From a virus (taxonomy: Duplodnaviria; Heunggongvirae; Uroviricota; Caudoviricetes), in IMG/VR virus record IMGVR_UViG_2690316148_000008: DNA of 8,412 nt; one strand, given 5' to 3'. Below are positions 1 to 8,412 of the stretch, piece after piece (position 1 is the first letter of the stretch; each line of letters opens with the position of its first letter). The notes under the pieces are model-generated. The model was not told where the DNA came from. It searched no databases and saw only the letters and a program-made list of their open reading frames with translations. The translations under genes were made by a program, and so were the position numbers.

Positions 1-31
1 TGGTAGTGTCCGCTATTGCCAGTACACCTCA
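1..31. repeat. Left arm of 31-bp terminal inverted repeat (partner 8382-8412)
   Basis: tggtagtgtccgctattgccagtacacctca is the exact reverse complement of the last 31 bases of the window; identity stops immediately beyond. Confidence 0.9.
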
Positions 32-116
32 GGGTATAAGGGGTTATGGCCACCGGACTACCAAACGGCTGCCAGCCCTCTTTCAGTTTATGTGTCAGCT
101 TTTCCGCAAGATCTGA
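1..116 (+). CDS. Short ORF fragment beginning at the window edge (ATG completed by one base outside the window); first 10 codons identical to the N-terminus of the right-edge ORF, then diverges; stop TGA at 114-116
   Basis: Manual translation in frame 3 gives (M)VVSAIASTPQGIRGYGHRTTKRLPALFQFMCQLFRKI*; bases 1-31 are the exact reverse complement of 8382-8412. Likely a recombination or assembly remnant rather than a functional gene. Confidence 0.25.
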   Translation, partial: VVSAIASTPQGIRGYGHRTTKRLPALFQFMCQLFRKI

Positions 117-351
117 CGGCGGCGCCGCCCTGACAACATCATAGTGTTTAAATGCCATGGTTCTTTCCACCATCTGAAAAATAATTCTTTAAAATACCTG
201 ACATGTAATACAGAAAAAACACAAAACCATACCTTAAATAAAAACCTGATTATCAAGCAGATATGCATGGATAAACTACAAGACGAGATATAAACCACCC
301 TGCATTTAAATAAACAATAAACAACATCAGAAAAATAATTCTGCTCTATGG

Positions 352-380
352 TTTACATTCAAAAATATCATTTATACTTT
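352..380 (+). promoter_or_regulatory. Candidate sigma70 promoter for the 111-aa ORF (TTTACA at 352-357, 17-nt spacer, TACTTT at 375-380)
   Basis: Hexamer match by eye in AT-rich DNA upstream of ORF 419-754; SD-like AAGGA at 408-412, 6 nt before the ATG. AT-rich sequence yields many promoter-like hexamers, so this is weak. Confidence 0.3.
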
Positions 381-418
381 TCAGAACATCACCAGCAAGG
401 CATAAACAAGGAAACTAA

Positions 419-754
419 ATGAAGTGGATTGTGATTGATACAGTTATCCAGCCATCATGCGGAATATCTTTTTCAGTCATATGGAGTAAAATAAAATTAA
501 TAATCTGGTATCAATCGGATGCTTTCTTACCTCCTGAAAGTATATTTACACTGACTCACACAGGCATCATGCTCAATAACAAAGTGCTACCTGTAACCAT
601 TTACAACGTAGTACCATTCAATAAAACATTCTGGAATTTAATCAAAAACAGCCAGGAATGCCCTACAAATACAGATAACGTATTGAATGAATGCTTTAAT
701 AACCGTTGCACTCTGCAAATATGTCCTTATGGACTAAAACAACAAAGTCCATAA
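419..754 (+). CDS. Hypothetical 111-aa protein in a low-GC island; five Cys, three in the C-terminal 30 residues; no obvious signal peptide; no family recognised
   Basis: Open frame of 111 codons in very AT-rich DNA, where stop codons are frequent by chance; AAGGA Shine-Dalgarno 6 nt upstream; perfect 9-bp hairpin 35 nt downstream; convergent with the phage late operon. Confidence 0.5.
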
Positions 755-788
755 GGAGTTTACTCACATCTGACAAAATCAATATAAA

Positions 789-810
789 CAGCCCCTCCGG
801 AGAGGGGCTG
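789..810. terminator. Perfect 9-bp stem / 4-nt loop hairpin (cagcccctc-cgga-gaggggctg); on the minus strand it is followed by a U-rich tract, on the plus strand it follows the 111-aa ORF
   Basis: Inverted repeat read directly; complement of 781-788 gives UUUAUAUU after the stem on the minus strand. Possibly a bidirectional terminator between convergent units. Confidence 0.5.
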
Positions 811-1005
811 GAGAGTGGCGCTATGTGCCATTGCATGGTGCCGGGTGCCTCCCGGTGAATTCAGTACCAGCACCTGAATCCGCGATTATCCCATATACCT
901 ACTCGCTGATTGCCCCTCCGCACAGGGGGATTCACCATGCCAGTTTCTTTTAACAAACTCCCCGCAAAACAGACAACTGTCAACCGTCTGAATTGTGAGA
1001 CATTT

Positions 1006-1031
1006 AAAAAAAAGGCCCGCAAAAGCGAGCC
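1006..1031 (-). terminator. Rho-independent terminator downstream of the tRNA cluster
   Basis: Minus strand reads GGCUCGC-UUUU-GCGGGCC followed by 8 U (A-run 1006-1013 on plus); stem 1014-1031 with one mismatch; 15 nt beyond the 3' end of the last tRNA. Confidence 0.6.
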
Positions 1032-1045
1032 AGGGAAAATAAGTG

Positions 1046-1122
1046 TGGCGCGTTGTACTGGATTCGAACCAGTGACCGATTGCTTAGAAGGCAATTGCTC
1101 TGTCCGGCTGAGCTAACAACGC
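1046..1122 (-). tRNA. argO: tRNA-Arg (anticodon UCU), 77 nt, encoded CCA
   Basis: Manual cloverleaf: acceptor GCGTTGT/ACAACGC, D-stem GCTC/GAGC, anticodon stem ATTGC/GCAAT with loop CTTCTAA, T-arm ACTGG-TTCGAAT-CCAGT, discriminator G, CCA. Symbol follows the ileZ-argN-argO arrangement recalled from lambdoid/Stx phages. Confidence 0.85.
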
Positions 1123-1135
1123 ATGATGCAGATAA

Positions 1136-1212
1136 TGGACCGCCATCGGGGACTTGAACCCCGCGCAGCCAGCTTCGAAGGCTGGCGCTCTTTCCTGATG
1201 AGCTAATGGCGG
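1136..1212 (-). tRNA. argN: tRNA-Arg (anticodon UCG), 77 nt, encoded CCA
   Basis: Manual cloverleaf: acceptor CCGCCAT/ATGGCGG (unusual C1-G72), D-stem GCTC/GAGC, anticodon stem CCAGC/GCTGG with loop CTTCGAA, T-arm CGGGG-TTCAAGT-CCCCG. Exact 5' end is uncertain by 1 nt. Confidence 0.75.
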
Positions 1213-1219
1213 TATGTGA

Positions 1220-1295
1220 TGGTGGCCCTTGCTGGATTTGAACCAGCGACCTGGCGATTATGAGTCGCTCGCTCTCACCACTGAGCTAAAGGGCC
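1220..1295 (-). tRNA. ileZ: tRNA-Ile2-like (anticodon CAU, presumably lysidine-modified to read AUA; Met cannot be excluded from sequence alone), 76 nt
   Basis: Manual cloverleaf: acceptor GGCCCTT/AAGGGCC, D-arm GCTC-AGTGGTGA-GAGC, anticodon loop CTCATAA, T-arm GCTGG-TTCAAAT-CCAGC, discriminator A, CCA; overall resembles my recollection of E. coli ileX. Confidence 0.8.
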
Positions 1296-1335
1296 GGGAG
1301 CCGCATAATAACGACGCGTAATTAATTCTTCAATA

Positions 1336-2394
1336 TCATCCGTTCTGGCTGACTAAATCCTGTACTTCCCGAACCGTCTGCTCAAAACGTTCAGTCTCCA
1401 GCTCAACGCCAATTGCACGACGCCCGAGCGCCAGTGCCGCTTTCACTGTCGAACCCAACCCCATGAAAAAATCTGCAATCAGGTCACCCGGACGACTGCT
1501 AGCGCTGATTATCTGCTGCAGCATTTCTGCCGGTTTTTCGCACGGATGTTTCCCGGGATAGAACTGCACCGGTTTATGCGTCCACACATCGGTATACGGC
1601 ACCTGCACCGTCACGCCAAAATACCGCCGCAGATGTTTATATTCACTCAGCAGCTCCGCATACTGCCGGTTCAGTGAGGTATACGTATCCACCAGCTGGT
1701 GGTGGAGCTTTTCCAGTTCACCACGCCGATGCTTCTCTTCTGCCACCCGGGCAAACAGCGCCTGTAATTTCAGATAATCGCTTTCATTCGGCAACTGCCA
1801 CTGACCGGCACTGAACCAGTGCGACACCATGTTTTTCTTTCCTGTGGCATCTGCAATCTGTTTTGCCGTTATCCCCAGGGCAGCTCGCGCATCACGAAAG
1901 TAAGAAATCAGCGGGGCCATCACATGCTGTTTCAGTGCACTGCCCTTCGCCGCATACCCGGCATCTTTCGGACGATACGGCCCCTGATAATGTTCCGCGA
2001 ACAGAATGCGCTCTGTGGCGGGGAAATACGCCCGCAGGCTTTCCTTGTTGCATCCGTTCCAGCGTCCGGACGGCTTCGCCCAGATAATATGGTTCAGCAC
2101 ACTGAAGCGTTCACGCATCATGATTTCGATATCAGATGCCAGGCGATGACCACAGAACAGGTAAAGACTTCCGGCAGGTTTCAGCACCCGCCAGAACTGC
2201 GCCAGACACTGGTCCAGCCACTTCAGGTAATCATCGTCGCCCTTCCACTGGTTATCCCAGCCCTCAGGCTTCACTTTAAAGTACGGCGGGTCCGTGACTA
2301 TCAGGTCAACAGAATTTTCGGGTAACGACCGGATAAATTCCAGGCAGTCGGCGTTGATTAACTCACAACTGGATATTTTTACAGTATTAAGCAT
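1336..2394 (-). CDS. Orphan DNA methyltransferase, beta-class N6-adenine/N4-cytosine type (motif IV DPPY near the N-terminus, motif I FxGxG near the C-terminus)
   Basis: 352-aa ORF; VTDPPY early and FFMGLGST late is the motif order of beta-class amino-MTases (N6_N4_Mtase family); no restriction endonuclease partner is visible in the window. Confidence 0.85.
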   Translation of the reverse strand: MLNTVKISSCELINADCLEFIRSLPENSVDLIVTDPPYFKVKPEGWDNQWKGDDDYLKWLDQCLAQFWRVLKPAGSLYLFCGHRLASDIEIMMRERFSVLNHIIWAKPSGRWNGCNKESLRAYFPATERILFAEHYQGPYRPKDAGYAAKGSALKQHVMAPLISYFRDARAALGITAKQIADATGKKNMVSHWFSAGQWQLPNESDYLKLQALFARVAEEKHRRGELEKLHHQLVDTYTSLNRQYAELLSEYKHLRRYFGVTVQVPYTDVWTHKPVQFYPGKHPCEKPAEMLQQIISASSRPGDLIADFFMGLGSTVKAALALGRRAIGVELETERFEQTVREVQDLVSQNG

Positions 2395-2486
2395 GGATCA
2401 TTAAGCCTGTCTCTGATAGGCTCATTCTGCTTTTGCGCAAAGCAGTGGGCCTGAGGTTTGCTTGTGAACCCAACGCATGAGCAGAT

Positions 2487-2517
2487 GGCTGGTGGGTGCC
2501 CCTAACACCCACCAGCC
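2487..2517. other. Perfect 12-bp stem / 7-nt loop hairpin (ggctggtgggtg-cccctaa-cacccaccagcc) in the methyltransferase leader; each arm contains a Chi octamer
   Basis: Inverted repeat read directly; GCTGGTGG at 2488-2495 (plus) and its complement at 2509-2516. Confidence 0.6.
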
Positions 2518-2530
2518 GCCCATTTACCAC

Positions 2531-2558
2531 AAATAAAAAAGCCTTCACTGCGGAAGGC
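2531..2558 (-). terminator. Rho-independent terminator (stem gccttc/gaaggc, loop actgcg, then UUUUUUAUUU on the minus strand)
   Basis: Hairpin 2541-2558 and A-run 2531-2540 on plus; the stop codon of the 65-aa ORF (2545-2547) lies inside the stem. Confidence 0.6.
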
Positions 2559-2742
2559 GTCTGTAACAACCGAACTGATAGTCTGCCAGACCCGCCATAA
2601 CCAGCTGGGTCAGTATTAACTGGCAGCGTTCGCGTGAAAGGTAAGTATTCTGCGCTATCTCCCCGACTGTCGCCGGTTCGGTAACGCTTAATTCATTAAA
2701 CACCACTCTGGCGGTTTCTGTCATATCCTGCTGTTTTAGCAT
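2545..2742 (-). CDS. Small (65 aa) putative helix-turn-helix DNA-binding protein
   Basis: AAGGA Shine-Dalgarno 6 nt upstream of the ATG; HTH-like segment TVGEIAQNTYLSRERCQLILTQL; sits between the late promoter/terminator and the methyltransferase. The terminator overlapping its 3' end keeps the coding call uncertain. Confidence 0.45.
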   Translation of the reverse strand: MLKQQDMTETARVVFNELSVTEPATVGEIAQNTYLSRERCQLILTQLVMAGLADYQFGCYRRLPQ

Positions 2743-2860
2743 GTCTTTTCCTTTTCCGGTTAACGTGACACACCAATAACTCTTGTCGAAAAAGCCAGCA
2801 AGCTGAAAGACAGGTATTCACCGCCACCAGCGCGTTTACTGTACTGACGCGATTTCAGTC

Positions 2861-2886
2861 ATAAAAAACCCGCTCGGCGGCGGGTT
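2861..2886 (-). terminator. Candidate tR'-like rho-independent terminator about 40-65 nt downstream of the pR'-like start
   Basis: Minus strand reads AACCCGC-CGCCGA-GCGGGUU followed by UUUUAU; 7-bp stem read directly. Confidence 0.55.
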
Positions 2887-2918
2887 GTAGAAACTCTTCT
2901 AACGTCAGGCATAAAACG

Positions 2919-2961
2919 CCCATCGTTATGACGAATTTACCACAGATTCCGGAAAAATCAA
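2919..2961 (-). promoter_or_regulatory. pR'-like Q-dependent late promoter: -35 TTGATT (2956-2961), 16-nt spacer, -10 TAAATT (2934-2939), then AACGATGGG (2927-2919) matching the lambda pR' sigma-dependent pause element as I recall it
   Basis: Hexamers and pause-like element read on the minus strand immediately downstream of the Q stop codon (2967); arrangement parallels lambda pR'. Confidence 0.6.
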
Positions 2962-2966
2962 CCTTG

Positions 2967-3623
2967 TTACCTAGTTACCTTTTTTAACTGCCGCTCAGCC
3001 CATGCTTCTTCAATATCAAACCGGGTCACCAGCGCATCATAAAATTTCTTAACTGTTTTTTCCCATGACGCGCGTGTTATCTGGTTTGTCACCTCGCATA
3101 TAGCATTAAATGCCTCCGTTGATGGTAGTCTTTCATAGCCACGACCACCACAACGCTGGCAGTCTCTGATAACAGGCATACCACGTTTTACCGACTCTTC
3201 ACGATGAATGGCGACACCACGCCCACGGCAATCCTTACAGGCGGTGGAAACCTCACCCTTTCCGCCACACTCCGGACAGGCAACTTTTACCACCTCTCTG
3301 ACTTTTTTCCATTCTTCCCAGTAAGACGGATACACACCTTTCGTACACTTTGCCCATACCGGCGGCTTACCATCCGGATACTGGACCTTGTTTGTAAAAA
3401 CTACGCTTTCAATAAATTTTTCCCCATAGCAACAAGGGCACTGCTTTTTACTCGCTGCGCTGCGGGCATAATCCTCAAAAGCGTACGAAGCCATAATGCG
3501 CATCACTACCGGTTTTATTTCTGCCGGAAGTTTTCTCAACGCCGCCACACGATCGCACCGACTGAGTGCATAATCTGCCAGTAATTCTGTTGCCCGCGCC
3601 CTGTCATTCATACTGATGCCCAT
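2967..3623 (-). CDS. Q: Antitermination protein Q, lambda-Q family, copy 1: carries the true C-terminus; the frame stays open upstream to the N at 3650, so it is 5'-truncated at the junction
   Basis: 218-aa ORF with CPCC...CPECGG...CKDCRGRG...CQRCGGRG zinc-ribbon motifs and a C-terminus (YDALV...VTR) resembling lambda Q from memory; followed by a pR'-like promoter. Confidence 0.75.
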   Translation of the reverse strand: MGISMNDRARATELLADYALSRCDRVAALRKLPAEIKPVVMRIMASYAFEDYARSAASKKQCPCCYGEKFIESVVFTNKVQYPDGKPPVWAKCTKGVYPSYWEEWKKVREVVKVACPECGGKGEVSTACKDCRGRGVAIHREESVKRGMPVIRDCQRCGGRGYERLPSTEAFNAICEVTNQITRASWEKTVKKFYDALVTRFDIEEAWAERQLKKVTR

Positions 3624-4257
3624 TTTCCCCAGGAACGCAGAAAACCCCANAATTTCTTAACTGTTTTTTCCCATGACGCGCGTGTTATCTGGTTTGTCAC
3701 CTCGCATATAGCATTAAATGCCTCCGTTGATGGTAGTCTTTCATAGCCACGACCACCACAACGCTGGCAGTCTCTGATAACAGGCATACCACGTTTTACC
3801 GACTCTTCACGATGAATGGCGACACCACGCCCACGGCAATCCTTACAGGCGGTGGAAACCTCACCCTTTCCGCCACACTCCGGACAGGCAACTTTTACCA
3901 CCTCCCTGACTTTTTTCCATTCTTCCCAGTAAGACGGATACACACCTTTCGTACACTTTGCCCATACCGGCGGCTTACCATCCGGATACTGGATCTTGTT
4001 TGTAAAAACCTCGCTTTCAATAAATTTTTTTCCGTGACAGCAGGGGCACTGTTTTTTGCTCGCCGCGCTACGGGCATAATCTTCAAACGCATACGAAGCC
4101 ATAATACGCATCACTGCCGGTTTTATTTCTGCCGGGAGTTTTCTTAACGCCGCCACGCGATCACACCGACTGAGTGCATATTCTGTCAGCAATTCTGTTG
4201 CCCGCTCTCTGTCATTCATACTAATGCCCATTTTCCCAAGGAACGCAGAAACCCCCA
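3043..4257. repeat. Two diverged direct copies of a ~607-bp Q segment (3043-3649 and 3651-4257) joined at a single N (3650)
   Basis: Manual alignment: the two units are near-identical over roughly the first 300 bp (about 1 difference seen) and clearly more divergent over the rest, with substitutions and 1-nt indels. Confidence 0.85.
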
Positions 4258-4396
4258 TCTCAGCCCGATTCTGTGTCATGCCCTGCGCGGCCATCACATC
4301 AGTGATACTCAGCGCATCTTTCGACGTTGAGGCCGATGCATCAGTCAGGCCGGGGGATTTTGGGGAGTAGTATTTCGGTAAATCTTCCAGTTTCAT
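3608..4396 (-). CDS. Q: Antitermination protein Q, lambda-Q family, copy 2: carries the true N-terminus; homology-supported coding is 3651-4396, and the ORF tail 3608-3649 is a frameshifted read-through across the N at 3650
   Basis: 262-aa ORF; N-terminus MKLEDLPKYYSPKSP...DVMAAQGM resembles lambda Q; same Cys motifs as copy 1; start codon overlaps the rusA stop (ATGA). Confidence 0.75.
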   Translation of the reverse strand: MKLEDLPKYYSPKSPGLTDASASTSKDALSITDVMAAQGMTQNRAEMGVSAFLGKMGISMNDRERATELLTEYALSRCDRVAALRKLPAEIKPAVMRIMASYAFEDYARSAASKKQCPCCHGKKFIESEVFTNKIQYPDGKPPVWAKCTKGVYPSYWEEWKKVREVVKVACPECGGKGEVSTACKDCRGRGVAIHREESVKRGMPVIRDCQRCGGRGYERLPSTEAFNAICEVTNQITRASWEKTVKKXWGFLRSWGKWASV

Positions 4397-4767
4397 TTTT
4401 TGACCTGCTCTTCATGCATTATGGGGTAAATCTTCACCCCCAGACGTCCACCAGATACTGGCTGACCACGAACGATATTGATTTCATCAAACTGCTCATC
4501 GTCCATTAACACTCCCGCATGTGTCAGTGCATCCAGTGGTGCTTTCAGGATATTGTCCAGGTCACGACGGCGCTTATCCGGTGGCTCTGCAATAATCTTT
4601 ATCGCCAGTCTTCCGGACAGGCTTAATTTCAGTCGCTGCTGACGGACAATAAGCGCCACATCCCGGCGATAACGCTCACCGGCTTTTGATACAAAATATG
4701 TGTTGTCACGACGTCGCCAGTAAGTATTCACCGTCGGCGGATAAGGTAAAATAAACTCATGGCGCAT
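4393..4767 (-). CDS. rusA: Crossover junction endodeoxyribonuclease RusA (Holliday junction resolvase)
   Basis: 124-aa ORF with RusA-like pattern LPYPPTVNTYWRRR...RRRDLDN...SGGR; stop overlaps the Q start (ATGA); start overlaps the stop of the upstream 85-aa ORF. Confidence 0.85.
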   Translation of the reverse strand: MRHEFILPYPPTVNTYWRRRDNTYFVSKAGERYRRDVALIVRQQRLKLSLSGRLAIKIIAEPPDKRRRDLDNILKAPLDALTHAGVLMDDEQFDEINIVRGQPVSGGRLGVKIYPIMHEEQVKK

Positions 4768-5024
4768 CAGCGCAGCACCTCCTGCACCAGTTTTTCAAAC
4801 TTTCCGACTCTGGTTTCCAGCTCTGCCACACAGTCCACCAGCTCATCTACTGCTTTCTGTGCGCGATGCTTCGCCTGCATCAGTTCCCGAAGCGCGGGTA
4901 CCATATCTTTACGGATAGCGTCTTTTGTTATGCCCGTTTTTTCGAGTTGTTCAGCATGACGCAGCATTTCCTGCGCGTGTTTACGCAATTGTTCAGGGGT
5001 AAAAGTCATTGTCTGGTTGTTCAA
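4767..5024 (-). CDS. Hypothetical small phage protein (85 aa from a TTG start with GGAG SD 8 nt upstream; in-frame ATG at 5009 would give 80 aa); N-terminus resembles the 114-aa ORF at 7639-7983
   Basis: Open frame; MTFTPEQLRKHAQEM is similar to [16 protein letters not shown] in ORF 7639-7983; 1-nt stop/start overlap with rusA. Confidence 0.55.
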   Translation of the reverse strand: MNNQTMTFTPEQLRKHAQEMLRHAEQLEKTGITKDAIRKDMVPALRELMQAKHRAQKAVDELVDCVAELETRVGKFEKLVQEVLR

Positions 5025-5076
5025 AAGAAACGCTCCATCTTACTGCTGTCAGTTCGTTTATTACTGTATCTGCGCG

Positions 5077-5143
5077 NNNNNNNNNNNNNNNNNNNNNNNN
5101 NNNNNNNNNNNNNNNNNNNNNNNNNNNNNNNNNNNNNNNNNNN
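5077..5143. other. Assembly gap (67 N)
   Basis: Run of n characters; separates the 5' UTR of the 85-aa ORF from a truncated second rusA copy. Confidence 0.95.
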
Positions 5144-5306
5144 TTCCGGACAGGCTTAATTTCAGCCGCTGCTGGCGAACAATAAGCGCCACTGCCCGGC
5201 GATAACGCTCCCCGGCTTTTGATACAAAATATGTGCTGCCACGACGACGCCAGTAAGTGTTCACCGTCGGCGGGTAAGGTAAAACAAATTCTATGCGCTC
5301 GGTCAT
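5144..5306 (-). pseudogene. rusA: 5' fragment (about 54 codons) of a second, diverged rusA copy, truncated by the N gap
   Basis: Encodes MTERIEFVLPYPPTVNTYWRRRGSTYFVSKAGERYRRAVALIVRQQRLKLSLSG; nucleotide sequence clearly similar to 4610-4767 (roughly 90% by eye); start lies 1 nt after the DUF968 stop. Confidence 0.7.
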
Positions 5307-6365
5307 TTATGCTTTCCACTTCAGAACACCCGAATTTCTCGCGTGCATTAAAAAACGAATCAGCAACAACAGCTGACTGCCGTGTTTCTCTTCAAAATCT
5401 TTTACTCCGGCATGTAGTTCGTTACGGCATTTACGGCATAACGGAATAACAAACAAATCATCAGCCTTTGTTCCCATCCCTCCCAGTCCATGACCAATGA
5501 TGTGATGCGGATCATCTGCCTGATTGCCACACGTCATGCATTTCTGCGTTTTTACCCAGCGCGTGTATACAGGCATCTCTTCCCGTTGTGATTTCTGGCG
5601 CTGGAGATACTGAGCCGGTGACTCCGGATCAACGGCAATGCTGACCACCGTCTTTTCCTGTGGTGGGTTCTGTTGCTGGTGGACGTGAGGCAGTAACGCA
5701 ATATTTTTTGTGCGCTGCTTCAGTATGCTGGTGGCTGTCTGCTCTCCCGGTATGATGTCGCTTTCACTGTACACAGAGCGAATTTTTTCCGCACGCAACC
5801 CCAGCGAACGACGTAATACCGCTTCCGGTAGCGCGTCCGCCACCTGATTGCGGACCGCCCACCAGGATAATTCAGCCAGAGATAATTCACGCTCCTGCGT
5901 ACCGCTTATTGCGTGACCGATGACGTCAATCATCCATGCTGACAGGTTTTGATGAGCAAGTTGCTCGAGTGATTCGGATGTCTGGTCACGCAGCTGGTTG
6001 TCGCAGTGCCAGCACAACACCATTGCGCCGGTACCATAACGGTGAATGACGGTTTCGCTGTGATGATAATCGCCGTGTGGCCACTGGCAGGATTTAATAT
6101 GGCGCAACAGCCAGTCAGACAATGCACCAGCACCACCAGCAGCACGAATCACCCGTGCGTTACTGAAAAACGGCAGCAATGTTTTGTCTTCCACCAGCGG
6201 CTGGCGAGCGGCAGGAACGACCCCGGACGGCAGATTACGCATGCTTTTTGGTTCCGGCTCCACCAGTATTCTGCCGTTATGGAATGCTGACATTGATTCA
6301 CGGCCTGGCTTAACGATAACCAGACCGAGTTCCGGTACCAGAACAGGTCGAAGTAATACCCGCAC
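5307..6365 (-). CDS. DUF968-family prophage protein (YdfU-like) with a C-terminal HNH/zinc-finger-like motif
   Basis: 352-aa ORF; C-terminal CMTCGN...HHIIGHGLGG...CRKCRNELH (CxxC...HH...CxxC...H); sits immediately upstream of rusA, the position I recall for ydfU-like genes in lambdoid prophages. Confidence 0.7.
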   Translation of the reverse strand: MRVLLRPVLVPELGLVIVKPGRESMSAFHNGRILVEPEPKSMRNLPSGVVPAARQPLVEDKTLLPFFSNARVIRAAGGAGALSDWLLRHIKSCQWPHGDYHHSETVIHRYGTGAMVLCWHCDNQLRDQTSESLEQLAHQNLSAWMIDVIGHAISGTQERELSLAELSWWAVRNQVADALPEAVLRRSLGLRAEKIRSVYSESDIIPGEQTATSILKQRTKNIALLPHVHQQQNPPQEKTVVSIAVDPESPAQYLQRQKSQREEMPVYTRWVKTQKCMTCGNQADDPHHIIGHGLGGMGTKADDLFVIPLCRKCRNELHAGVKDFEEKHGSQLLLLIRFLMHARNSGVLKWKA

Positions 6366-6366
6366 A

Positions 6367-6645
6367 TTACCTCCAGATCCGTTGCTGGAATGTGCGGGAC
6401 GGACGCGTTGGCCGTTCGGAGTAAGGGAGCCTGACGGAGATTATCCAGTGACGGTAGTCGAGGCTAAGGGCTTTTTTAACCTCGCATCCGCGCCTGCGGT
6501 AACACTGAATGAGCCATTCGGCCTGTTCTTCAGTGCATGGGGGATGCTGGTACCAATCAGATTTAAATGCGTGAGAGCGCCGCCCGTGCCTGCTGGCAAA
6601 GACGGCTGAATTATCAGAATTGTGTAGTCTGGAATTTTGCGCCAT
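6367..6645 (-). CDS. Hypothetical small protein (92 aa)
   Basis: GGAG Shine-Dalgarno 7 nt upstream of the ATG; stop 1 nt before the DUF968 start. Amino-acid composition is unremarkable and no family is recognised. Confidence 0.45.
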   Translation of the reverse strand: MAQNSRLHNSDNSAVFASRHGRRSHAFKSDWYQHPPCTEEQAEWLIQCYRRRGCEVKKALSLDYRHWIISVRLPYSERPTRPSRTFQQRIWR

Positions 6646-6711
6646 CGGCTTTCTCCGGTGGCACAGTGTTACTCAACAGGGGTTCAGCCCTGCGCTGAAT
6701 TGTAGATGAAT

Positions 6712-6975
6712 TCACTCATCTTCAAAAGCAGAAAAACCAGCCTTAATCCCAGCTTCTTTCAGAGACGGCAACGATGTGACAAATTCATTTGCACGCGAAA
6801 TAAAACCATCCGTCACAAGCCCATCCACAAAATGAATTAACGCAGCTCCACTCTTCCTTTGTTGAGATTGCAAACATCTAATGCGGCAATGGCTGACAAT
6901 AGCGCCATTCTCAACGCGCACAGTATAGAGGCCATCTTCACTAAAAATTTCACGTAATTCTTCGATTTTCATCAA
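6712..6975 (-). CDS. Hypothetical small protein (87 aa)
   Basis: GGAAGGA Shine-Dalgarno 8 nt upstream; candidate promoter directly upstream; no family recognised. Confidence 0.5.
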   Translation of the reverse strand: MMKIEELREIFSEDGLYTVRVENGAIVSHCRIRCLQSQQRKSGAALIHFVDGLVTDGFISRANEFVTSLPSLKEAGIKAGFSAFEDE

Positions 6976-7053
6976 CAGAATCCTTCCAGATAAATAGCAC
7001 TCCCCTGTTCGGGGTCCATCCCTCTTCTCCCTGCGCGCTACTTAAGTGAGTCG

Positions 7054-7081
7054 ATTCTATCTGCGAAGGTGCGCGAATCAA
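7054..7081 (-). promoter_or_regulatory. Candidate sigma70 promoter for the 87-aa ORF (-35 TTGATT at 7076-7081, 16-nt spacer, -10 TAGAAT at 7054-7059)
   Basis: Hexamers read on the minus strand about 20 nt downstream of the hok terminator. Confidence 0.45.
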
Positions 7082-7100
7082 ATTCACCGGAAATAAACAA

Positions 7101-7122
7101 CAAAAAACCCGCCGAAGCGGGT
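7101..7122 (-). terminator. Rho-independent terminator of the hok transcript (stem cccgc/gcggg, loop, then UUUUUUGUUGUUUAUUU on the minus strand)
   Basis: Hairpin 7108-7121 and A-run 7102-7107 on plus; about 70-90 nt after the hok stop, matching the usual hok 3' UTR length. Confidence 0.65.
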
Positions 7123-7191
7123 TAAGTGTGGGTGCATTGAGGATGCCTGACCCATCAGAGGTGGCGAGGGATTTCTCCCCCGCCTGGTCTC

Positions 7192-7347
7192 TTACTCCTC
7201 AGGTTCGTAAGCTGTGAAGACAGCGACCTCCGTCTGGCCGGTTCGAATTCGTACCTCGCAGAGGTCTTTCCTCGTTACCAGTGCCGTCACTATGACGGTT
7301 AAACAGATGACGATCAGGGCGATTAACATCGCCTTTTGCTGCTTCAT
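7192..7347 (-). CDS. hokD: Hok/Gef-family membrane toxin (51 aa), HokD/RelF-like; the open frame extends in-frame upstream to an ATG at 7404 (70 aa), which may be a mok-like initiation region
   Basis: MKQQKAMLIALIVICLTVIVTALVTRKDLCEVRIRTGQTEVAVFTAYEPEE matches my recollection of E. coli HokD and the Hok consensus (CLT...TRK.LCE.R); AAGGAG SD 9 nt upstream of the ATG at 7347. Confidence 0.85.
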   Translation of the reverse strand: MKQQKAMLIALIVICLTVIVTALVTRKDLCEVRIRTGQTEVAVFTAYEPEE

Positions 7348-7516
7348 AGCCTGCTTCTCCTTGCCTTTCGGCACGTAAGAGGCTAACCTAGATTTGCCGT
7401 TCATAGATTGAGCCTCAGATTAATGTTAAGCGTCTTGCCGGACGCGTAATGTTAACTGGGGCTTTTCTCTATCTGCCTTTTGGTGTTCATGCCTGAGACA
7501 GATAGCCTCAAGCACC

Positions 7517-7551
7517 CGCTGCAATTCTACTTAACTCTCCTTTTCCCGCAA
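7517..7551 (-). promoter_or_regulatory. Candidate hok promoter (-35 TTGCGG at 7546-7551, 16-nt spacer, -10 TAGAAT at 7524-7529), predicted start near 7517 giving a ~170-nt leader
   Basis: Hexamers read on the minus strand; predicted 5' end coincides with a 12-nt element (7506-7517) complementary to the 3' UTR (7130-7142). Confidence 0.5.
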
Positions 7552-7638
7552 ACCGTTTTTATCCCCAGCGGCAAATCGAATACACCACCAGCGCCACCGC
7601 CATCGCAATTCCTACCGTTGTTAATGCTTCAGGCCAGG

Positions 7639-7983
7639 TCATCGTAAAATATCCTCCACGCTTATCAGTCCGTTCCGCTCCAGATAACTCATCGCCTTAT
7701 CCGGTAATTTGCAGTCTGGCTTCGCTTTCCTCAGTTGCCAGGTTAACTGCTTTACCAGCATGGTTAACTCATCGACCAGACGCTGATATCCCACTGGTTT
7801 GTATTCATGCAATTTACCGGCTGGCTCTGCTGCCAGCGATACCAGTGCGATTTCCAGAACAGCAATATCCATCTTATATGTGCGGATGATGTCATGGTCG
7901 ATTGTGCCCGGTATGCACAGTCTCTGTGCTTCAATAGTCTCCTCTGCGTGAGCTATTAACTGCTCTCTGGTAAAAGTCGTCAT
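7639..7983 (-). CDS. Hypothetical small phage protein (114 aa), translationally coupled to the upstream 55-aa ORF
   Basis: Start ATG overlaps the upstream stop (ATGA); N-terminus resembles the 85-aa ORF at 4767-5024 and its middle ([12 protein letters not shown]) resembles the 55-aa ORF ([11 protein letters not shown]). Confidence 0.55.
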
Positions 7984-8147
7984 GCCGTAGCCCCTTCTTG
8001 ATATTTTTCAAACCAGAACACAACCGGCTCTGCTTCCAGCGATGCCAGCGCAATCCGTGCCAGTTCCATTTGTTCACCACGGGTAAGCCCGTTTTCAAGC
8101 GGGTTTTTAATGAACAATTCAATACGTTCTTTGGTAATAGTGGTCAT
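7980..8147 (-). CDS. Hypothetical small protein (55 aa), absent from the supplied ORF track because it is below the length cutoff
   Basis: Manual translation: [55 protein letters not shown]; strong GGAG Shine-Dalgarno 6 nt upstream; stop overlaps the start of the 114-aa ORF. Confidence 0.5.
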
Positions 8148-8157
8148 GTGTTACTCC

Positions 8158-8412
8158 TTAACCCGCAGTGCTTTCAACTGATGAGGGGAACAAAATCTTT
8201 TCATCAAACCCTGCATTCATATCATGAACAGCAACACACCAATCCATCGACNNNNNNNNNNNNNNNNNNNTCGACGAACGATTATCAAGAGCCTCCATGA
8301 TTTCATCCATGCGGCGTAGGTCATACAGGTAAATGCTTTTATCGCCAATGGTGTAAAAGCCAATTTTTTTCGGTGATGGATGAGGTGTACTGGCAATAGC
8401 GGACACTACCAT
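8158..8412 (-). CDS. Hypothetical protein (84 codons), start ATG at the window edge (may extend beyond); interrupted by a 19-N gap at 8252-8270
   Basis: Open frame MVVSAIASTPHPSPKKIGFYTIGDKSIYLYDLRRMDEIMEALDNRSS...; stop TAA at 8158-8160 overlaps the SD of the next ORF; the first 31 nt are repeated inverted at the left window edge. Confidence 0.4.
   Translation of the reverse strand: MVVSAIASTPHPSPKKIGFYTIGDKSIYLYDLRRMDEIMEALDNRSSXXXXXXXSMDWCVAVHDMNAGFDEKILFPSSVESTAG
8382..8412. repeat. Right arm of 31-bp terminal inverted repeat (partner 1-31)
   Basis: Exact reverse complement of bases 1-31. Confidence 0.9.

Follow-up and report, generated by a model that had tools for sequence, protein, structure and literature searches.

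A viral record, probably a draft scaffold, that ends on both sides in the tip of IS600 and is pieced together from two prophage remnants of a Shigella sonnei-type genome

The viral record IMGVR_UViG_2690316148_000008 (Caudoviricetes) is a stretch of 8,412 nucleotides (nt), hereafter the window, which carries a perfect inverted repeat at its two extremities. We demonstrate that this repeat belongs, at both ends, to the insertion sequence (IS) IS600, of which it is the outermost part on the transposase-distal side (IRR), and that the window is a patchwork of two loci and not one 8.4-kb IS-bounded segment. It is very probably a mis-scaffolded short-read draft of a Shigella sonnei-type genome with its ends broken at two IS600 copies, i.e., an ordinary assembly feature. 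A sequence-only reading of the same DNA had proposed that the repeat was a k-mer overlap at the ends of a draft contig, corresponding to a gene start repeated in both orientations, or alternatively that it marked the ends of an invertible or recombining segment.

The terminal repeat and IS600

The repeat was located by a script and by a repeat finder, both of which gave concordant results. It spans 31 nt, with arms at 1–31 and 8381–8411, the first letters of the window being TGGTAGTGTCCGCTATTGCCAGTACACCTCA and the last ones ...TGAGGTGTACTGGCAATAGCGGACACTACCAT. Base 8412, a T, is the 32nd base of the foreign sequence at the right end. The repeat had thus been correctly seen, yet its right arm, first placed at 8382–8412, was off by one, since the reverse complement of that interval begins with an A while base 1 is a T. 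Inside the window, no further copy was found, even when up to 3 mismatches were allowed, and none of the shuffled sequences used as a control (0/200) produced a match, so the repeat is not due to chance. Inward of the two arms, the flanks diverge at once in alignments with intact prophages, which confirms the complete divergence described from the letters alone.

To identify the repeat, the left 420 nt were compared by megablast with 5,426 complete Escherichia coli genomes, and E. coli genomes were also searched with the right 142 nt and the 32-mer. The left end matched 2,899 records, the best of which begin at base 29, inside a DUF1737 gene adjoining iraM. The right end matched 3,339 records inside a small hypothetical phage gene, and none of these matches extended past base 8380/8381. 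Neither junction was found among these genomes. Intact homologues therefore match only as far as the repeat, which means that the terminal 31 nt are foreign to both contexts. The 32-mer itself gave 4,993 matches spread over 2,666 E. coli genomes, with at most 43 in any one genome and 870 located on plasmids, and the two that we inspected lie just past the 3' end of a gene annotated as 'IS3-like element IS600 family transposase' (programmed frameshift).

IS600 is an IS3-family element that was first described in Shigella sonnei. The left end (31 nt) and the right end (32 nt) agree at every base with the IRR tip of full-length IS600 copies, which measure 1264 bp. One such copy (L002, 2501–3764, 1264 bp), flanked by a 3-bp target duplication (GCG), begins with TGAGGTGTAC... 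and ends with ...GGCTACCTCA. The tip starts with TGAGG, as expected for an IS3-family terminus (5'-TG ... CA-3'). The transposase-proximal end (IRL) reads TGAGGTAGCCTGAGTTTAACGGACACTCC... and has only 20 of the 31 bases in common with the 31-mer, the other 11 being different, so both window ends are IRR, and an IRL at one end combined with an IRR at the other was rejected. The same IS600 end, read in opposite directions, is a sufficient cause for a perfect 31-bp terminal inverted repeat. In S. sonnei chromosomes, the identical junctions run into 1264-bp IS600 copies (99.6–99.9% identity) that carry HTH_Tnp_1 and rve genes. The full element, with its orfA/orfB DDE transposase (−1 frameshift), was thus seen after the tip in these chromosomes, outside the window, which matches IS600 in the tip sequence and, unlike the element, holds only the tips. 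A 20-kb locus contains as many as 3 IS600 copies. At the scale of the genus, five IS are expanded in all Shigella, IS600 being among them, and the chromosomes carry 229–348 IS (PMC7373316).

Both ends of the window correspond to genes cut by this element. On the left, the truncated DUF1737 open reading frame (ORF) continues into IS600 as RCTGNSGHY..., while the native protein, of 67 amino acids, continues as ...YTLMQAIAAEG. An exact look-up of this DUF1737'::IS600 fusion ORF returned 981 contigs, which bear the name of S. sonnei or Shigella. On the right, the native protein has 87 amino acids and reads MATLTKKERAWLNELQEVLDRY-PSPKKIGFY..., and the chimera starts from an ATG located 30–32 nt inside the IS600 tip, in frame (MVVSAIASTPH-PSPKK...). 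This chimera is annotated in S. sonnei records as a 76-amino-acid 'prophage protein'. The left-hand ORF, MVVSAIASTPQG..., is antisense to the real DUF1737 gene. Hence, the MVVSAIASTP peptide is a read-out from the IS600 tip, and the left ORF is spurious. The peptide had been reported at both ends; it is indeed encoded at the right end (minus strand, ATG at 8412–8410), whereas the left-hand copy lacks the A of its ATG, which falls outside the window.

Two distant loci joined in one scaffold

Both IS600 insertions truly exist in S. sonnei, where they are fixed. The methylase protein of the window is encoded in many S. sonnei chromosomes, at a locus that we call locus 1, which is a decayed lambdoid prophage adjoining ompW, where IS600 cuts the 87-amino-acid gene with which the nin-type region begins. 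By BLAST, positions 8271–8412, IS tip included, are 100% identical in 10/10 S. sonnei chromosomes (L005–L014), and a full IS600 then follows. The left junction is missing from locus 1. It sits in a second prophage remnant, locus 2 (L023–L034), joined to a complete IS600, and the order there is IS21, 85-amino-acid ORF, RusA, Q, DUF3927, iraM, DUF1737', and IS600. The two loci share long near-identical late-regulatory sequence (RusA, Q, and the small RNA (sRNA)/tRNA region). All the complete genomes that we examined have the two junctions 0.67–0.79 Mb apart, in different prophage remnants. The locus-1 and locus-2 junctions lie respectively at ~1,860,627 and ~2,536,709 in CP104423.1 (separation of 676 kb), at ~1,823,164 and ~2,493,844 in CBDDMI010000001.1 (~671 kb), and at ~2,107,271 and ~1,318,964 in strain 53G (HE616528.1; 788 kb). 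The two IS600 copies have opposite orientations, each with its IRR end turned towards the large interval. An exact scan of the GTDB representative genomes with the left-junction 43-mer gave 0 matches, S. sonnei having probably no species representative there.

We established the composition of the window by mapping its mismatches, base by base, to locus 1 and locus 2 of a single genome, together with segment-wise matches (Table 1). Segments of 100% identity alternate between the two distant loci, and duplicated alleles are found at the gaps. The first switch, from locus 2 to locus 1, occurs between 839 and 968, in an identical 130-nt stretch that coincides with the STnc100 element. Further switch points, also in sequence shared by the two loci, lie at 3043–3385 and 4353–4408. 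Three runs of N are present, at 3650 (1 N), 5077–5143 (67 N), and 8252–8270 (19 N). Around the single N, positions 3043–3649 and 3651–4257 both correspond to a single 607-nt portion of the Q antiterminator gene, i.e., two alleles in tandem forming a direct repeat; their first 300 nt are identical. The locus-2 allele is 3386–3649 and the locus-1 allele 3651–4352. This tandem is a scaffolding artefact, which creates a false gene duplication and a false 262-amino-acid ORF across the N. In the same way, two RusA paralogues that are 90% identical (4611–4765 and 5144–5298) stand on either side of the 67-N gap. As for the 19-N run, it has TCGAC on both flanks, where the native sequence is AATCCATCGACGAACG. 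Window position 8251 corresponds to L005 position 5534 and window position 8271 to L005 position 5538, i.e., the flanking contigs overlap by 5 nt. This overlap means that the 19-N gap is spurious and that the ORF there is lengthened. Taken together, the alternation of loci, the tandem Q and RusA alleles, and the 5-nt overlap under the N's point to scaffolding rather than biology.

Table 1. Annotated features of the window and origin of its successive segments
Feature	Position	Strand	Remarks
IS600 IRR, terminal 31 nt	1..31	-	outer tip (TGA...) at base 31; element runs leftwards beyond the window
DUF1737 gene, 5' part	32..173	-	start at 158 or 173; cut by IS600 after ...AITPYTL; Pfam DUF1737, E=9e-16
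iraM-like gene (PmrD fold), 111 amino acids	419..754	+	RefSeq 'anti-adapter protein IraM' under the match; precomputed PF11183 matches
STnc100-type sRNA	780..969	-	Rfam RF02076, 133.6 bits, full-length; between iraM and the tRNAs
tRNA cluster: Arg(TCT), Arg(TCG), CAT-anticodon tRNA	1046..1295	-	
N6/N4 DNA methyltransferase, locus 1	1336..2394	-	Pfam PF01555, E=8e-42; exact protein in S. sonnei locus 1
Q antiterminator, two partial overlapping alleles	2967..4396	-	Pfam Antiterm
RusA, 124 amino acids, locus 2	4393..4767	-	Pfam RusA
85-amino-acid ORF, locus 2	4767..5024	-	
nin-type region, locus 1	5144..8251	-	RusA fragment, DUF968/HNH gene (5307–6365), small ORFs, hok, sok
hok	7192..7404	-	Pfam HOK_GEF, E=3e-23
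sok RNA	7342..7517	-	Rfam sok, 112 bits
87-amino-acid phage gene, 3' part	8158..8380	-	function not known; first 22 codons replaced by IS600
IS600 IRR, terminal 32 nt	8381..8412	+	outer tip at 8381; element runs rightwards beyond the window
Segment from locus 2	1..838		two single-nucleotide polymorphisms
Segment from locus 1	839..3385		one position differs from L005
Segment from locus 2	3386..3649		100%
Segment from locus 1	3651..4352		100%, after the single N at 3650
Segment from locus 2	4353..5076	-	100% to L023 7327–6604
Scaffold gap	5077..5143		67 N, joining the locus-2 contig to the locus-1 contig
Segment from locus 1	5144..8412		5144–6634 100% to L005; 8271–8412 100% to L005–L014

Assembly and competing explanations

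We infer that the window results from a de Bruijn assembly with a small k, in which both ends would have halted at the collapsed IS600 node, each scaffold end stopping inside the element at a depth of about one small k-mer (31 and 32 nt). The assembler and scaffolder would have run a single path through both loci (locus 2, 1, 2 / N / 1, 2 / N / 1) and would have written out negative gaps as N. Other S. sonnei drafts behave comparably at this sequence. In these drafts, locus 2 forms a separate contig of 2.3–3.9 kb, and 4 of the 6 that we retrieved end 125–148 nt inside the same IS600 at the left junction. Contig size histograms peak at 2–5 kb for contigs with the locus-2 marker and at 2–10 kb for those with the locus-1 marker. 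The window ends thus show what is seen at repeat-induced contig ends, i.e., a multi-copy sequence, an overhang of about one k-mer, and a break at the same place in other assemblies. On this point, the proposal of a draft contig with both ends in one multi-copy sequence is borne out by the IS600 copies, by the 31- and 32-nt overhangs, and by the breaks of other drafts, and the idea of a de Bruijn k-mer-type contig end was largely right. Contig breaks at repeats are the basis of tools such as ISMapper (PMC7373316), and IS elements are known to fragment Shigella assemblies (PMC12795559). The window resembles the usual de Bruijn breaks at multi-copy repeats in that it stops about one k-mer into the repeat and that the same junction recurs in independent assemblies. 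It differs from them in that the scaffold also merges two paralogous loci and bears both IS tips on one record.

Several observations weigh against this explanation. The two overhangs, 31 and 32 nt, fit no single k−1 value. At 639 and 649, in the iraM-like gene, the window differs from 19/19 S. sonnei locus-2 sequences; these variants, 10 nt apart, correspond to a common E. coli/Shigella iraM allele (100% to L022). Moreover, base 3297 and positions 7048–7102 differ from every locus that we fetched. A third paralogue or strain-specific variation would explain the variants at 639/649, 3297, and 7048–7102. The pair at 639/649 could stem from gene conversion, from an allele peculiar to the strain, or from a third paralogue whose bubble was popped. 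The region 7048–7102 is a hypervariable patch of ~55 nt upstream of hok, distinct from every S. sonnei locus fetched.

Two explanations would give the window a biological reality. In the one, it would be a genuine contiguous 8.35-kb prophage segment between two inverted IS600 copies, i.e., a composite-transposon-like or IS-invertible cassette. The gene order of DUF1737, iraM, tRNAs, methylase, and Q is natural in E. coli lambdoid prophages, and locus 1 of some chromosomes (L005–L008 and L010–L012) does carry two inverted IS600 copies with their IRR inward, at 5398–5428 and 11794–11824, ~6.4 kb apart. However, the left flank of the window is the locus-2 junction and not the L005 junction at 11794; the window contains five locus switches, with both Q and RusA alleles in tandem around N runs; and at a 250-bp indel (6635–6884) it resembles the 53G-type genomes, which are without the second locus-1 IS600. 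In closed genomes, the two junctions are 676, ~671, and 788 kb apart, and such a segment is therefore very unlikely. The terminal inverted repeats make the window superficially similar to composite transposons and to Hin/Gin/Fim switches. On the contrary, its repeats are IS tips, it is not contiguous in real genomes, and no recombinase or invertase was found among the ten window ORFs scanned against Pfam, which does not speak for a site-specific switch. The invertible segment put forward in the sequence-only reading is thus wrong for the 8.4-kb window, the junctions being 0.67–0.79 Mb apart, and partly right in another sense, the IS600 copies being mutually inverted and their outer flanks exchanged in one genome, LR213449.1 (see below). 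Concerning the 250-nt stretch 6635–6884, it is present in the 53G-type genomes L009, L013, and L014 and absent from the L005-type genomes; the latter carry an extra IS600 downstream of the tRNAs.

In the other, the mosaic would exist in the source strain, through homologous recombination or gene conversion between the paralogous prophage regions (deletion of the interval or patchy conversion). The two loci point the same way and are 100% identical over stretches longer than 130 nt, and the two polymorphisms at 639 and 649 resemble what a short patch of conversion would leave. The five switches nevertheless go beyond a single crossover; a deletion would remove 0.67–0.79 Mb, which we presume to be lethal; and gene segments in tandem parted by one N, like a 19-N run over a 5-nt overlap, are scaffolding signatures. 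A viable deletion between the two loci was rejected because the loci alternate five times and because the interval is so large, and recombination as a whole appears slightly less probable still than the contiguous segment. Finally, the 31-mer could be the 5' end of a real gene in two inverted copies, or an adapter or hairpin chimera at contig ends. The ATG-started ORF in the right-end repeat and its annotation as a protein would agree with a gene start. Yet the 31-mer is the IS600 tip in thousands of genomes, the native right-hand gene has a different N-terminus of 22 amino acids, and the left ORF lies antisense to DUF1737. The claim that the repeat is a gene start in both orientations is refuted by these facts. 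The adapter or hairpin artefact was also rejected, since the 31-mer is the tip of an IS that resides in genomes and since both junctions were seen again in complete as well as draft assemblies made independently. We consider this last pair of possibilities hardly credible. The draft scaffold broken at two IS600 copies is, by far, the explanation that we favor.

Prophage content and IS600 rearrangements in S. sonnei

The predicted content of the window matches a lambdoid late-regulatory region, such as that of intact E. coli prophages (e.g., STEC388). The iraM-like gene (419–754) gave no match in our own Pfam scan. The CAT-anticodon tRNA is called Met by ARAGORN and annotated as tRNA-Ile by RefSeq. 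The tRNA cluster lies downstream of the DNA methylase gene, as in Stx-type lambdoid prophages, and its locus-2 version has diverged (87% identity). An intact hok/sok type I toxin-antitoxin system (7192–7517, minus strand) is also present within this decayed prophage.

The two IS600 copies found at the junctions lack the 3-bp target duplication (TTT|IS|TCC at locus 1 and CCC|IS|CTA at locus 2), while six other IS600 copies have clean ones (GCG, GTT, TCC, TGC, GTG, and CAA). The missing duplications point to a later IS-by-IS recombination of both copies and are no argument against their identity as IS600. More broadly, the copies at L005 4166–5428, L023 10128–11391, L005 16522–17785, and L023 1882–3146 are all without target duplications, unlike neighboring copies, which suggests that IS600 elements in the prophage remnants of S. 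sonnei have repeatedly recombined with one another. The ompW-side genes of locus 1 (DUF977 and DUF4014) are inverted compared with their order in intact E. coli prophages.

A comparison of the flanks (L012 1–5428 versus L024 10128–15555) revealed that, in LR213449.1 (L012), the 4,164 nt on the IRL side of the locus-1 IS600 match at 100%, in reverse complement, the outer flank that the locus-2 IS600 has in other S. sonnei genomes. Moreover, locus 1 is found in this genome at ~2.498 Mb and reversed, the position expected if the whole interval had flipped. This one junction and this position fit a chromosomal inversion of ~0.67 Mb mediated by IS600. Queries with the 62-amino-acid fusion ORF, DUF977, and iraM did not recover the reciprocal junction in LR213449.1 (ompW-side flank ...CCCTTTAATTTT, IS600, DUF1737'), the DUF977-neighbor query returning only draft contigs of 0.45–1.2 kb. 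IS-flanked inversions are well documented in Shigella (PMC8072062, PMC12795559). The present case is like them in that inverted IS600 copies bound 0.67–0.79 Mb and that flanks are exchanged in LR213449.1; it is unlike them in that it is a property of the genome and not of the window, and that one of the two recombinant junctions was recovered. Whether the interval between the inverted copies may flip recurrently in S. sonnei populations is a more speculative matter, and we hold it for rather unlikely. Short-read assemblies would not reveal such a flip, since it would leave the k-mers of both junctions unchanged, and, if true, it could affect the replichore balance or gene dosage.

The underlying biology, i.e., the expansion of IS600, the decay of prophages, and IS-mediated inversions in Shigella, is already well documented. 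The case of this record calls for caution in the reading of draft assemblies, where a terminal inverted repeat can be the mere tip of a multi-copy IS. ORFs that start in IS tips are read-out artefacts, and one of them has been propagated in databases as a 'prophage protein'. Lastly, the silent merge of prophage remnants located ~0.7 Mb apart would mislead analyses of synteny, prophage typing, and IS insertion sites.

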